This document shows, in pieces, positions 12,001-15,000 of a stretch of DNA of 64,000 nucleotides. This DNA comes from a virus (Duplodnaviria > Heunggongvirae > Uroviricota > Caudoviricetes). How positions within the stretch are numbered: position 1 is the stretch's first letter; each line of letters starts with the position of its first letter. The position numbers are program-made. The stretch is from IMG/VR virus record IMGVR_UViG_2568526312_000010; one strand, written 5' to 3'.

Positions 12001-15000
12001 GTTAAAAATGGAGACCAACACGCTGTCACGTGTGGTCGTGCGCCGGACACGGATAAGAATCCGGTACTGACAGTTTACTGAAAGGATATTTCCCTGAAAA
12101 GTCAGTGCATAACGCGAAAGCGTACGGCGAAGCTCTTTCCCTTAGAAGGCTTGTCGTTAGATTTCTTCGAACGTGCGCTTCCGGTTGTGGCACTCCGCGA
12201 AATGGCGCGGCGGTAAGTATGGCGGGGTTATTCCTTCCCCATTGAGGACACCGGGTTGTCAGGTTGACCATACGCTTAAGTGACAACCCCGCTGCAACGC
12301 CCTCTGTTATCAATTTTCTGGTGACGTTTGGCGGTATCAGTTTTACTCCGTGGCTGCTCTGCCGCCCTTTTTAAAGTGAATTTTGTGATGCGGTGAATGC
12401 GGCTAAGCGCACGCGGAACAGTTAAAACCAAAAACAGTGTTATGGGTGGATTCTCTGTATCCGGCGTTAATTGTTAACTGGTTAACGTCACCTGGAGGCA
12501 CCAGGCACTGCATCACAAAATTCATTGTTGAGGACGCGATAATGGAAACGTTATTACCAAACGTTAATACGTCTGAAGGTTGTTTTGATATTGGTGTTCT
12601 GCTCAGTAACCGGGAGTTTACTGAAGATGCCATTAACATGAGGAAATATGAGCCTTATCTGCTCAATGATAATTCCATACTTTCCCGAATTGCTCTTCTT
12701 GAACTTGGTATTTTCGGAGAACGTCAATGACTTCAGCATTTGCACTGATGATGACGGTTTTTCTTATAACGGGTGAATCACAGAATGTGATTACCGGAAT
12801 TTATGCCAGTAAAGAATCCTGCCTCCAGGCAAGAGACGAGCAAAAAATTTCTGGTGAATGCCTCCCGGTAAAAAAAGTATCGCTGTACCTGAATAACGAA
12901 ACACCGGCTGGATAACCCTCCAGCCATATTAACACCATACCAACGGATTAAAAATGCCAGCAATGGCAGGGATTTGTTCACCCTTAAATCTGTAATGAGG
13001 TTTATCAATGAGCACTGATAAAGAAGAATTTGCGCTATATTGCGAAGCAAAAAATGACAAAGTCAGAAAACGTCTGGGAATTAAAGGTGGTTTTTACTGG
13101 ACTACAGCAAAAAAATTATCTGTTGCCATCTCCCGCTGCATTACCGCAATGGATGACAACGATTATGATGAAGACGACTTTAAAAAACCCGTTCGCGTCC
13201 ATTTACCCGTTGTGAATGACCTTCCACCTGAAGGCGTGTTTGATACCGAATTCTGCAACCGATACGAAAAAGGCGGGGAAGATGGCATTACAATGGTATT
13301 TATCGCGCCCTCTCCCTCCGTGCAGGAGAAACCAGCCAGTACTGACAATACCAACGTCAACGGCGAAGACATGACGGAGATTGAGGAGAATATGCTCCTG
13401 CCGGTTTCTGGTCAGGAGCTGCCCATTCGCTGGCTTGCGCAACACGGCAGCGAAAAACCAGTAACGCACGTTGCACGGGAAGAACTTCAGGCATTACATA
13501 TAGCACGGGCGGAAGAACTGCCGGCTGTTACTGCCCTGGCCATTTCTCACAAAACAAAGCTGCTCGACCCGCTGGAGATTCGCGACCTTCACAAACTGGT
13601 ACGCGACACTGACAAAGTTTTCCCTAATCCCGGTAATTCAGACCTGGGACTGATAACTGCTTTTTTCGAGGCATACCTGGACGCTGACTACACTGATCGG
13701 GGTCTGCTGACAAAAGAGTGGATGAAAGGAAATCGTGTTTCGCGTATCACCCGTACGGCTTCCGGTGCAAATGCCGGTGGCGGGAACAAAACCGATCGCA
13801 ATCCGAATTTAGTACACACCTTCGATACGCTGGATGTGGAGATTGCAGCAGCCACACTTCCGATGGATTTTAATATTTATGAAATTCCGGGCAGCGTTTA
13901 TCGTCGCGCAAAAGAAATCGTCCTGAAAAGAGAAAGTCCGTTCAAAGAATGGTCCGCAGCACTTCGCGCAACCCCGGGTATTCTGGACTATTCCCGCGCC
14001 GCTATTTTTGCACTTATCCGGAGCGCTCACCCTGAGTTTTATCACTACCCGGGACGCCTTCAGGGGTATATCAACGCCTACTTAACGGAGACTGATCACG
14101 AGAACCCCAGCAAGGAAACTCTCACTGCTGCACGACATACACCGGAAAAAGATATCCTGGAAGAAGTTAACCGCGAACTGTCTGCTAAGCAGGAAACAGA
14201 AGAAGAAAATGATGAAGAAAAACCGCAACCATCTTGCGCAATGGCAGAATGATAATCAGAAGAAATCTGGCAAAAGACCGTTTTACAGTACCAAAAACAC
14301 AGGCGGGAACCAATCGTGTGATTCACCTTATTAAGCCCGCAATCGACGCTCTCCGGAGTCAGATGGCACTAACGAGACTGAGCAAAGAGCATATCATCGA
14401 TGTTCACCTCAGAGAATTCGGCAGAACAGAGAAACAAAAATGTACCTTTGTTTTTCAACCTGAAGTGTCAGCGAAAGTAAAAAATTATGGCGACCATTTT
14501 ACCGTTGACTCAATAAGGCAGATGTGGGACGCAGCGGTAAAGCGTGCCGGAATCCGCCATCGCAAATCGTATCAGTCGAGACACACTTATGCCTGCTGGT
14601 CGTTAACAGCAGGAGCTAACCCGGCATTCATTGCAAACCAGATGGGCCATGCAGATGCGCAAATGGTGTTTCAGGTGTACGGGAAATGGATGTCAGAAAA
14701 TAATAATGCGCAGGTAACGCTGTTAAATACACAGTTAAGCGAGTTTGCCCCAACCATGCCCCATAACGAAGCGATGAAAAGTTAATTTTTTATTTATCAA
14801 TTAGTTAGATTGAATGACTCTTGAAATCCATAATTCATAGATGTTTTTTACTATTCTGTGGGTTTTTGGGTGTTTTCTAAGTTTTTTCAGATGGTTGTAT
14901 TTTTTCTAAAAATCCCTAATCTCGATTTTGCTGTTTATTTGAGGCCTTTTTATGTCCCATATATGCCCCACAGATACCCCGCAGCCAAAATCAACAAAAT

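Follow-up and report, generated by a model that had tools for sequence, protein, structure and literature searches.

The closest described relative of the loci studied here is the dicBF operon of the Qin prophage of Escherichia coli K-12 (ydfABC-dicF-dicB-ydfD). Its transcripts start at dicBp, and most of them end at the DicF terminator, with a 1,146-nt species dominant. The region between ydfC and dicF is cut by RNase III to yield a 190-nt RNA and by RNase E to yield the 53-nt DicF (Faubladier 1990; Ragunathan 2023); the longer species depends on the former enzyme and the shorter one on the latter. The 190-nt RNA is stable in stationary phase, and its level is higher when RNase E is inactivated. 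As for the proteins, DicB of K-12 inhibits division in a MinC-dependent manner and excludes phages in a ManYZ-dependent one. In EHEC O157:H7, dicF and parts of dicBF were found in several prophages (CP-933O/M/P), and according to published descriptions Sakai and 86-24, both of them EHEC, carry four dicF copies each.

We analysed a 64,000-nt stretch of viral DNA (IMG/VR record IMGVR_UViG_2568526312_000010, hereafter the window), of E. coli O157 type, which holds two loci of this kind. The preliminary description of this DNA assigned them to prophages called P1 (~12 kb) and P2 (~59.7 kb); we renamed them copy A and copy B so as not to confuse them with bacteriophage P1. Judging by their sequence, both very probably represent the dicBF segment known from lambdoid prophages of the Qin type, located inside a repressor-controlled early-left operon. 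The cassette, the long untranslated region, its processing by RNase III and by RNase E and the multiplication in EHEC are all already published.

Two copies of the dicBF segment

From ydfC over the untranslated region and dicF into dicB, copy B aligns almost identically with K-12 Qin, and the published sequence of the processed K-12 region matches the region found here. Mean column identity in the three-way alignment of copy A, copy B and K-12 Qin is 95%. The region was matched, at a median of 2 places, in 4743 of the 5426 complete genomes of E. coli compared, and matches of 100% to the window come from O157:H7, O26 and O121 genomes.

The gene order in copy B is ydfC, untranslated region, dicF, dicB and ydfD, with an upstream ORF (59166-59384) that is YdfC, identical to K-12 at 71 of 72 positions. 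In copy A, a DUF1391 gene and a 216-aa gene precede the untranslated region, dicF, dicB and ydfD, and an HTH+S24 repressor gene and a promoter-like site (10757-10785) lie upstream. Here ydfB and ydfC are replaced by the 216-aa gene and a convergent minus-strand ORF of 69 aa (11771-11977), which could hinder read-through into the untranslated region. Apart from this inserted ORF, both copies follow the gene order of a Qin-like dicBF operon, with small ORFs, a long untranslated stretch, dicF, dicB and ydfD all on the same strand and a repressor gene upstream; promoter-like sites lie upstream of them as well.

Table 1. Features of the two loci in the window, and identity between the copies
Feature	Position	Strand	Description
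5' untranslated part, copy A	12036-12104	+	small conserved hairpins; fold from the consensus of 33 distinct Qin-type leaders
ydfC-dicF untranslated region, copy B	59444-59725	+	nearly identical to K-12 Qin
RNase III hairpin, copy A	12105-12183	+	long, interrupted, ~21 bp in consensus; RNAalifold (33 leaders) and MFE
RNase III hairpin, copy B	~59513-59593	+	
Structured domain, copy A	12184-12298	+	body of the 190-nt species; multi-helix, covariation-supported
Structured domain, copy B	59594-59709	+	covariance-model match 59585-59722, 162 bits
Domain closing helix	12184-12191 with 12291-12298	+	
Domain hairpin H0	12195-12199 with 12206-12210	+	
Domain variable hairpin HA	12224-12227 with 12237-12240	+	
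Domain hairpin HB	12253-12261 with 12281-12289	+	
Candidate pseudoknot	12212-12222 with 12268-12276	+	GGU..GUAUGG with CCAUACGCU
Linker, copy A	12299-12314	+	A/U-rich, single-stranded; 100% identity with both copy B and K-12
Linker, copy B	59710-59725	+	
DicF, copy A	12315-12367	+	53 nt; Rfam RF00039 75.0 bits (12316-12367)
DicF, copy B	59726-59778	+	Rfam RF00039 76.7 bits (59727-59778); identical to K-12 DicF
dicF-dicB spacer (dicB 5' leader), copy A	12368-12541	+	dicB Shine-Dalgarno GAGGA at 12530-12534
dicF-dicB spacer (STnc100-like), copy B	59779-59952	+	98% identical to copy A
dicB variant allele, copy A	12542-12730	+	62 aa; Pfam PF05358 residues 1-62, 125.5 bits
dicB Qin-type allele, copy B	59953-60141	+	62 aa; Pfam PF05358 residues 1-62, 127.4 bits
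ydfD-like, copy A	12727-12915	+	62 aa; DUF1482 (PF07358) 56.3 bits; start overlaps dicB stop (ATGA)
ydfD Qin-type, copy B	60138-60329	+	63 aa; DUF1482 88 bits
A vs B identity	12036-12127		90%
A vs B identity	12128-12169		64%; diverged patch
A vs B identity	12170-12541		96-100%
A vs B identity, dicB	codons 1-35; codons 36-62		89%; 46%
A vs B identity, ydfD and beyond	ydfD; from 12954		57%; 100% again

Both DicF sequences were recognized by Rfam cmscan at the gathering threshold (48 bits for RF00039), with matches spanning the full length of the model; the 53-nt bounds were set by alignment to the annotated K-12 gene. The copies are one base apart, since position 12353 (nt 39) is G in copy A and A in both copy B and K-12. 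The change converts one inner-stem pair from U-A to U-G and keeps the stem. Each DicF carries an intrinsic terminator, a GGCGG...CCGCC stem followed by U5. For copy A, the terminator hairpin has a folding energy of -15.4 kcal/mol, the U-run occupies 12368-12372 and a terminator-like site was predicted. Identity with the K-12 sequence suggests that these DicF copies would be produced by RNase E, bind Hfq and repress ftsZ.

After each DicF, Pfam matches to DicB and DUF1482 exceed the gathering scores (27 and 25 bits, respectively), and the dicB product of copy A is named DicB by PGAP (WP_000449175.1). The two DicB proteins are 65% identical and differ mostly after residue 35, with divergence of the C-terminal 27 residues; the YdfD proteins are 47% identical. 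The divergence of the DicB C-terminus and ydfD is, to judge from the alignments, a mosaic allele swap. The two DicB proteins may not have the same targets or, as the preliminary description proposed, the same activity. Among the complete E. coli genomes, the copy A dicB allele occurs in 843 of 5426 and the Qin allele in 3972 of 5426. In the K-12 annotation, the homologue of the copy B ydfD is a lysis protein.

The spacer between dicF and dicB gave a match to Rfam STnc100 (RF02076) in copy A that stays below the gathering score of 47 (34.7 bits, E 8e-6), and its K-12 equivalent gave the same sub-threshold match. The spacer hairpins are shared, with compensatory changes, with the STnc100 of the window, a kil leader of an Stx phage and the tciA leader of P1. 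This suggests that the spacer is distantly related to STnc100.

Homology between the copies, and with K-12 Qin, begins at about 12036/59444. The preliminary description had reported a 53-nt DicF in both prophages (with one substitution in what is now copy A), dicB and ydfD behind each, and DicB proteins differing in their C-terminal thirds; all of this is borne out by Rfam, Pfam and the alignments. It had also described a leader conserved between the copies save for a diverged central part of ~60 nt. The alternation of conserved and diverged sequence is real, and the patch is shorter, ~42 nt (12128-12169). The copies probably differ through lambdoid mosaicism, in which the RNase III hairpin apex and the dicB C-terminus/ydfD cassette were exchanged, with hardly any change in DicF, in the structured domain or in the leader of dicB.

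Two allele cassettes for DicB/YdfD occur in EHEC strains, one with a CI-like S24 repressor (copy A) and the other with a PaaR2/DicA-like repressor (copy B). Because different repressors stand over the two cassettes, the same sRNA may respond to different inducing signals.

Predicted processing of the untranslated region

The steps of the following pathway were shown in K-12, and we carry them over to both loci from the 95–100% sequence identity. Transcription would begin downstream of the prophage repressor, at a PL-like promoter, and pass through small upstream genes into the long untranslated stretch. RNase III would then cut near the base of the long hairpin and leave the 190-nt RNA, composed of the structured domain, the linker and DicF. 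If 190 nt are counted off from the 3' end of dicF in K-12, the 5' end of this species would fall at ~12178-12180, a position good to a few nt.

The consensus strands of the hairpin are CAUAAC.GC.GAAAGCGYACGGCGA and UCG.ACCGUGCGCUU.CC.GGUUGUG, and the diverged central patch corresponds to its apex. In the lower stem, no convincing compensatory changes were found among 33 distinct leaders.

RNase E would cut in the A/U-rich linker to release the 53-nt DicF, whose 3' end would be set by its own intrinsic terminator. The cut that forms the 5' end, AUCAAU|UUUCUGG, falls at 12314/12315 and coincides with the annotated K-12 dicF 5' end. Polymerases that read through the terminator would transcribe dicB and ydfD. 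With Hfq, DicF would repress ftsZ, xylR, pykA and manX and, in EHEC, activate pchA; DicB would block Z-ring assembly together with MinC and also prevent ManYZ-dependent entry of phage DNA, while YdfD would act as a lysis protein.

The structured domain and its distribution

The alignment of 70–72 distinct homologues of the domain has 95% of its cells paired. In total, 12–13 pairs are changed on both sides, in contrast to ~5 in shuffled alignments (0/500). The minimum free energy structure of 12179-12314 contains the same helices as the covariation-based fold, which we assign to the plus strand because of its G-U pairs. Compared with shuffled sequence, the domain alone has no extra stability (z = +0.25), and the case for it therefore rests on covariation. 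The helix of the candidate pseudoknot is 99.5% paired, with a single pair changed on both sides.

Unguided RNAalifold picked the pseudoknot helix over HB. We retained HB on the strength of six pairs altered on both sides, three of them in Izhakiella alone. An antiterminator-like pairing of GGCGCGGCGG in the domain with the 3' strand of the terminator, suggested by the minimum free energy structure, was discarded as a general property: phage P1 lacks it, and the GGCGGUA motif common to DicF-type terminators explains it.

No Rfam family matched the domain at E<=5. Across 11900-12600, the same search returned just DicF, the spacer's STnc100 match below threshold and, outside the domain, two matches at chance level, and ARAGORN found no tRNA- or tmRNA-like element. 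Taken together, covariation marks the 3' ~115 nt of the leader as a multi-helix domain, possibly pseudoknotted, that lies outside Rfam.

The domain recurs in the ban leader of phage P1, in cdtI and Stx2c lambdoid phages and in prophages of several enterobacterial genera (Citrobacter, Serratia, Erwinia, Trabulsiella and Izhakiella). At each occurrence, another terminator hairpin lies downstream; in all, the domain is joined to at least 10 distinct terminator or loop sequences. In all intact copies examined, 33–115 nt separate it from a terminator hairpin that is strong and has a U-run, with early genes beyond. In phage P1, the element directly follows the C1-controlled P1ban promoter, ahead of the whole ban operon. 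In phage cdtI, a strong PL-like promoter (11/12 match) is followed by the domain as the first conserved feature, and no N-like ORF lies between the two. The domain was also found in ~510 plasmid records, most of them ~85–125 kb long and non-mobilizable; the P1-type plasmid copies that we retrieved have it directly after the dam methyltransferase gene, as in P1. Matches in a Dehalococcoidia MAG (L143) and in five viral contigs (L006, L021, L065, L067 and L095) were dropped as chance matches. An open-literature search for the function of the P1 dicF-like region or ban leader found nothing.

Possible roles of the domain and comparison with known systems

One reading, somewhat less likely than not, is that the domain is a discrete, selected RNA module placed upstream of interchangeable terminator-hairpin sRNAs. 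Rather than a passive precursor, it would have a cis function of its own, either in termination and Rho read-through or in refolding triggered by RNase III.

A somewhat more doubtful possibility is that the functional unit is the entire RNA of ~185–190 nt, i.e., the domain with a variable seed/terminator hairpin. The domain would then stabilise the RNA or time its release by RNase E, and the RNase III cut would trigger refolding, because GUUGUGG can pair either upstream (RNase III hairpin) or downstream (domain closing helix) and so is part of both helices. The stability of the 190-nt species in stationary phase and its increase upon RNase E inactivation fit this idea, as does the joining of the domain to so many terminator or loop sequences. 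Moreover, the P1 primary transcript from P1ban to the terminator measures ~180 nt, close to the size of the Qin RNase III product, and the inferred RNase III cut lies 4–6 nt upstream of the closing helix. However, stabilisation or guidance of RNase E would not obviously depend on loops being invariant, and the domain alone is no more stable than shuffled sequence. The upstream partner CAUAAC is invariant in Qin-type leaders, which leaves that helix without covariation support, and minimum free energy folds of the 194-nt RNA favour other long-range pairing.

The domain might also act in cis on transcription elongation, by modifying RNA polymerase in the manner of HK022 put RNA or by blocking Rho loading. 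In either case polymerase could get past the DicF-type terminator and an untranslated RNA of ~500 nt and so arrive at dicB or, in P1, at ban. The constant position of the domain before a strong terminator and early genes agrees with this proposal, as do its placement directly after P1ban and, in cdtI, after a PL-like promoter with no N-like ORF between. From Escherichia to Erwinia and Serratia, loops and linkers are near-invariant and stems covary, which suggests a conserved binding partner. Nonetheless, we consider this role unlikely: the covariance model has no match in HK022 24000-31000, which should hold the immunity region, and put RNAs are ~70 nt long with two stem-loops. Each phage has a single domain copy with no counterpart on the PR side, most K-12 transcripts stop at the DicF terminator, and in phage P1 there is no conserved alternative pairing between domain and terminator.

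The preliminary description called the upstream region a leader, and an older study, as cited in later K-12 work, suggested an extra promoter in the operon. That dicF has its own promoter within this region, making it a true 5' leader, is very improbable. Primer extension and RT-PCR in K-12 revealed no additional promoter inside the operon, an rnc mutant lacks the 5' end of the 190-nt species, and no sigma-70-like or promoter-like site was predicted on the plus strand of 11990-12315. The K-12 data and the lack of a predicted site instead point to an untranslated stretch inside the polycistronic early-left operon.

The rest of that description of the region fared better. Its ~290 nt with stops in all frames come to ~280 nt, with every plus-strand frame stopped in copy A, copy B and K-12, and its stable helices hold in so far as leader and DicF together fold more stably than dinucleotide shuffles, by a modest excess only (z = -2.68 and -2.73 for the two copies). 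A conserved small ORF, which it had named as the counter-evidence to look for, was found in none of the three sequences, nor does their untranslated region contain a plus-strand ATG ORF with a Shine-Dalgarno sequence. Its reading of a non-coding structured region followed by DicF, dicB and ydfD was therefore correct by Rfam, Pfam and the ORF check. That either strand encodes a small protein is scarcely credible. In its favour, copy A has a 95-aa TTG ORF on the minus strand (12026-12313), and K-12 has a minus frame open over the entire untranslated region, but the copy A ORF meets stops in copy B (59640, 59568), the plus-strand GTG/TTG ORFs of 36–46 aa in copy A have no ATG or Shine-Dalgarno and are shifted in frame by 1-nt indels between the copies, and the covariation of the domain includes G-U pairs workable only in plus-strand RNA.

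In the 190-nt DicF precursor, the body is formed by a conserved, covarying domain, which phages join to different sRNA hairpins and which also heads the ban operon of P1. If it controls read-through or sRNA release, this would explain how early operons lacking N express genes past a strong terminator, and the domain would represent a new phage RNA family.

Among the known systems, the put RNAs of HK022 resemble the domain in position, being structured RNAs early in a repressor-controlled phage operon with terminators downstream and no N gene there. In HK022 24000-31000, the covariance model showed no sequence or structure similarity to it, and the domain was rejected as a put homologue on that missing match. 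The ~70-nt put RNAs occur in both PL and PR operons, whereas the domain has ~115 nt, a closing helix, three hairpins and the candidate pseudoknot.

The STnc100/PasD family of prophage sRNAs shares with the spacer the GGUGAAU... hairpin and the CACCNGGAGGCACCNGGCAC hairpin, with compensatory changes. STnc100 is a free-standing sRNA, whereas the spacer here is the dicB 5' leader.

The "dicF-like region" of phage P1 (NC_005856, 68791-68892, ban-operon leader) contains the same domain, in which HA, HB and the pseudoknot pair show compensatory changes, and an intrinsic terminator downstream. A closing helix is not evident there, and the P1 terminator hairpin, GCCCAUCUUCGGGUGGGC, has no relation to DicF: at E<=0.01, Rfam finds no DicF in it. 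The element lies ~35 nt from the promoter in P1, in contrast to ~800 nt into the operon in the Qin type.

Compared with K-12 Qin, copy B is near-identical from ydfC through dicB and ydfD, with a truncated ydfA homologue and a paaR2-paaA2-parE2-type locus upstream. Copy A shares with Qin the untranslated region, 52 of the 53 DicF nucleotides, the spacer and, at the N-terminus of DicB, 35 residues. It differs in the genes that replace ydfB and ydfC, in the diverged apex of the RNase III hairpin, in the DicB C-terminus and ydfD allele, and in its repressor, a CI-like HTH+S24 protein and not DicA. Finally, the multi-copy dicF of EHEC O157:H7 shows essentially no difference from the two loci. The finding of dicF-dicB-ydfD itself is nothing new, and the additional result is the domain common to phage P1 and other phages.

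Two dicBF loci and the differences between them

The loci at ~12 kb (copy A) and ~59.7 kb (copy B) are dicBF segments of Qin-like lambdoid prophages, Qin being a cryptic prophage of E. coli K-12. A search at the Rfam gathering threshold recognized DicF (RF00039) at 12316-12367 (75.0 bits) and 59727-59778 (76.7 bits); alignment to the annotated K-12 gene gave 53-nt extents (12315-12367 and 59726-59778). As the preliminary description stated, the two DicF copies differ by one substitution: position 12353 (DicF nucleotide 39) carries G in copy A, where copy B and K-12 carry A, so that an inner-stem U-A pair becomes U-G. 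The dicB and ydfD genes that it placed after each dicF were confirmed by Pfam matches at both loci, and PGAP names the copy-A genes DicB and a DUF1482 protein. Copy B can be aligned to K-12 Qin from ydfC through to dicB, untranslated region and dicF included, and the ORF 5′ of its untranslated region is YdfC (71/72 identical). Mean column identity in the three-way alignment of both copies with Qin was 95%.

Matches to the region were observed in 4743 of 5426 complete E. coli genomes, at a median of two places and a maximum of ten, and were 100% in O157:H7, O26 and O121 genomes. Four dicF copies are reported in EHEC (PMC7873438), and DicF has been described as a ydfC 3′ UTR product (PMC9438474). 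The gene identities and non-coding nature proposed earlier are correct, and the finding as a whole is already known biology. In the 2016 literature, DicF and DicB had no matches in phage databases. In sequenced phage genomes (e.g. OV696610 Tritos, PV340562 PhiR42_1, ON470612, LC5678xx PPompW), we observed a cassette of dicF, untranslated region and dicB with 94% identity; therefore, it is not limited to defective prophages.

Similarity between the copies begins at ~12036/59444. A diverged centre in otherwise conserved leaders, as first proposed, is real, but it spans ~42 nt and not ~60. At the sequence level, the DicB proteins do differ toward the C-terminus: they are 65% identical, with the differences clustered past residue 35. 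The break within dicB and the return to full identity at 12954 mark the dicB C-terminus plus ydfD as an exchanged cassette, a case of ordinary lambdoid mosaicism. Of the 5426 genomes, 843 carry the copy-A dicB allele and 3972 the Qin allele.

In place of ydfC, copy A has a convergent 69-aa ORF (11771-11977, minus strand) with a GGAGG Shine-Dalgarno sequence, a hypothetical protein (WP_001133037.1) with no Pfam match. A minus-strand promoter-like site (12005-11976) lies at the outset of the conserved untranslated region. Together, the ORF and this site could interfere with transcription into dicF. In copy B (58647-59079), the ydfA (DUF1391) homologue is reduced to ~26 matching N-terminal codons, ydfB is absent, and a 68-aa minus-strand ORF (58873-59079) with a zinc-ribbon-like CxxC...CxxC motif fills the gap.

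Features of the two loci and other elements of the window
Feature	Position	Strand	Remarks
Small hairpins, copy A	12036-12104		
Long interrupted hairpin, copy A	12105-12183		consensus ~21 bp, 33 distinct Qin-type leaders
Structured domain, copy A	12184-12298		
Closing helix	12184-91 with 12291-98		
H0	12195-99 with 12206-10		
HA	12224-27 with 12237-40		
HB	12253-61 with 12281-89		
Candidate pseudoknot	12217-22 with 12268-73		
A/U-rich linker, copy A	12299-12314		invariant
DicF + terminator, copy A	12315-12367		followed by U5 run
dicB leader, copy A	12368-12541		
dicB, copy A	12542-12730		62 aa; Pfam DicB full length, 125.5 bits
dicB, copy B	59953-60141		62 aa; Pfam DicB full length, 127.4 bits
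ydfD-like gene, copy A	12727-12915		overlaps dicB; DUF1482, 56.3 bits
ydfD-like gene, copy B	60138-60329		overlaps dicB; DUF1482, 88 bits
P22-Cro-like gene, copy-A side	9703-9990	-	
Copy A vs B	12036-12127		90% identity
Copy A vs B, diverged patch (~42 nt)	12128-12169		64% identity
Copy A vs B	12170-12541		96-100% identity
Copy A vs B	dicB codons 1-35		89% identity
Copy A vs B	dicB codons 36-62		46% identity
Copy A vs B	ydfD		57% identity
Copy A vs B	from 12954 onward		100% identity
sok antitoxin RNAs (hok/sok-type), one per prophage	4932-5106; 52707-52881	-	Rfam > gathering score
ALIL pseudoknot (IS3-family frameshift element)	27209-27325	+	Rfam > gathering score
Two tRNA clusters	389-638; 49545-49791	-	Rfam > gathering score

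Untranslated region and its processing

The stretch 5′ of dicF is indeed stop-rich, with stops in all three plus-strand frames of copy A, copy B and K-12, and in none of the three did it contain an ATG ORF with a Shine-Dalgarno sequence. Its short GTG/TTG ORFs are out of frame between the copies. A small ORF in the leader was rejected: plus-strand ORFs are frame-shifted, copy A's 95-aa minus-strand ORF is broken in copy B, and none is conserved between the copies on either strand. The claim of structure also held, as leader plus DicF fold modestly better than shuffled sequence (z ~ -2.7). The view of this region as a promoter-proximal leader had to be abandoned. Since copy B aligns to Qin and is preceded by YdfC, the "leader" is the untranslated ydfC-dicF stretch within a polycistronic operon (340 nt in K-12). 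In K-12, a 190-nt species arises through RNase III and the 53-nt DicF through RNase E. Both stem from transcripts initiated at the operon promoter dicBp, and experiments detected no internal promoter (PMC10448788, whose supplement prints the exact sequence of the processed region).

The variable apex of the long interrupted hairpin coincides with the diverged central patch. A span of 190 nt measured back from the 3′ end of K-12 dicF would put the RNase III-dependent 5′ end at ~12178-12180, at the base of the hairpin's 3′ strand. The DicF 5′ end lies between AUCAAU and UUUCUGG, within the linker/DicF junction.

The following steps were demonstrated in K-12, and we infer them here from 95-100% identity. 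Loss of repressor would activate the early-left promoter, and transcription would cross the upstream genes into the untranslated region, from which RNase III would release the 190-nt RNA and RNase E the 53-nt DicF, ending at its own terminator. Read-through of this terminator would allow expression of dicB and ydfD. DicF, together with Hfq, would repress ftsZ along with metabolic mRNAs, and would activate pchA in EHEC; DicB would work via MinC and ManYZ, and YdfD would lead to lysis.

The two copies probably respond to different signals. Copy A lies 3′ of an HTH and peptidase-S24 (CI/LexA-like) repressor gene (10034-10672) and a promoter-like site (10757-10785). The region 5′ of copy B (57182-58442) carries a YdaS/Cro-like gene (minus strand), a repressor-like gene of 123-144 aa without a Pfam match and, following this repressor gene, a PaaA2 antitoxin and ParE toxin pair; the arrangement resembles paaR2-paaA2-parE2, a three-gene locus known from O157 cryptic prophages.

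The dicF-dicB spacer (12368-12541; 59779-59952) gave a sub-threshold STnc100 match (34.7 bits against a gathering score of 47). Two of its hairpins recur, with compensatory changes, in the bona fide STnc100 of the window (48597-48769, minus strand). The same hairpins, again with compensatory changes, were observed in the kil leader of Shigella Stx phage 75/02 (L005 1589-1787) and the tciA leader of phage P1 (L003 2842-2961). STnc100-like elements may be 5′ leaders of small division-inhibitor-type genes.

Structure of the conserved domain

The interest beyond known biology lies in a conserved domain without an Rfam family, which merits a covariation-grade description. Distant blastn searches of phage genomes revealed that ~120 nt directly 5′ of DicF are conserved independently of DicF. 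We tested the structural model with 70 distinct domain sequences, and standard pairs occupied 95.1% of cells. Pairs changed on both sides numbered 12, against 4.6 ± 1.4 in shuffles (0/500), and 13 in a covariance-model-fitted alignment; shifting the 3′ partners by 1-3 columns lowered pairing to 33-57%. The strongest covariation evidence comes from HB, where GGGUUGUCA/UGACAACCC is replaced by GGGUAACCA/UGGUUACCC in Izhakiella and by GGGUGAUCA/UGAUCGCC in a plasmid of E. fergusonii. HA is swapped wholesale for other hairpins (CAGGUG/CACCUG, CCCGGG/CCCGGG and others). H0 shows no pair altered on both strands and is absent in one plasmid variant. Frequent G-U pairs place the fold on the plus strand. 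The domain alone does not exceed shuffled sequence in stability (z = +0.25), yet its MFE still reproduces the model.

A pseudoknot might also exist. Extended to 9 bp, its helix pairs in 99.5% of cells, and pairing survives in all variants (U-A, C-G or U-G at one pair, G-U or G-C at another). Its support is weak, since double-sided change is confined to a single pair. Unguided RNAalifold selects the pseudoknot helix over HB, the outcome expected if both exist.

Possible role and distribution of the domain

In the closing helix the motif GUUGUGG is the 5′ strand, and in the RNase III hairpin it is the outermost 3′ strand, so these two helices are mutually exclusive. RNase III cleavage could thus free the domain to fold. 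It is possible, although we hold it only tentatively, that the domain renders the ~190-nt RNA a stable, properly processed unit. All intact copies that were examined have a strong hairpin and U-run 33-115 nt 3′ of the domain; the one degenerate Shigella copy (L133) does not. That the domain governs terminator or Rho read-through seems improbable. The downstream hairpins comprise 35 distinct sequences in roughly ten seed or loop classes.

In distant variants from Serratia, Trabulsiella, Erwinia, Izhakiella and one viral contig (L131, L140, L142, L144 and L054), the terminator hairpin 3′ of the domain is long (60-70 nt) and contains both a Shine-Dalgarno sequence and a start codon (e.g. GGAGGAGAAGAUAAUGUUCUACCG...); a small ORF seems to start within the terminator stem.

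A covariance-model search detected only two domain copies in the window. The domain had no Rfam 15 match at E<=5, and an ARAGORN search found nothing. Kinship with put, the cis-acting antiterminator RNA of HK022, was rejected, as the covariance-model search gave no hit in HK022 24000-31000, the segment expected to contain the immunity region. Many further copies emerged when IMG/VR and a set with one genome per species were scanned by pattern; these belong to E. albertii, E. ruysiae, Shigella, Citrobacter, Serratia symbiotica, Trabulsiella, Erwinia tracheiphila and Izhakiella. About 510 plasmid records carry the domain, mostly ~85-125 kb and non-mobilizable. It is also present in phage cdtI and Stx2c phages (88.6% identity) and in bacteriophage P1; in all of these the hairpin 3′ of the domain is not DicF. 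In P1, it lies immediately past the C1-controlled P1ban promoter, at a site that the P1 record labels "dicF-like region". Among the plasmid records fetched, those of P1 type carry the domain shortly past a dam methyltransferase gene, which is also its place in P1.
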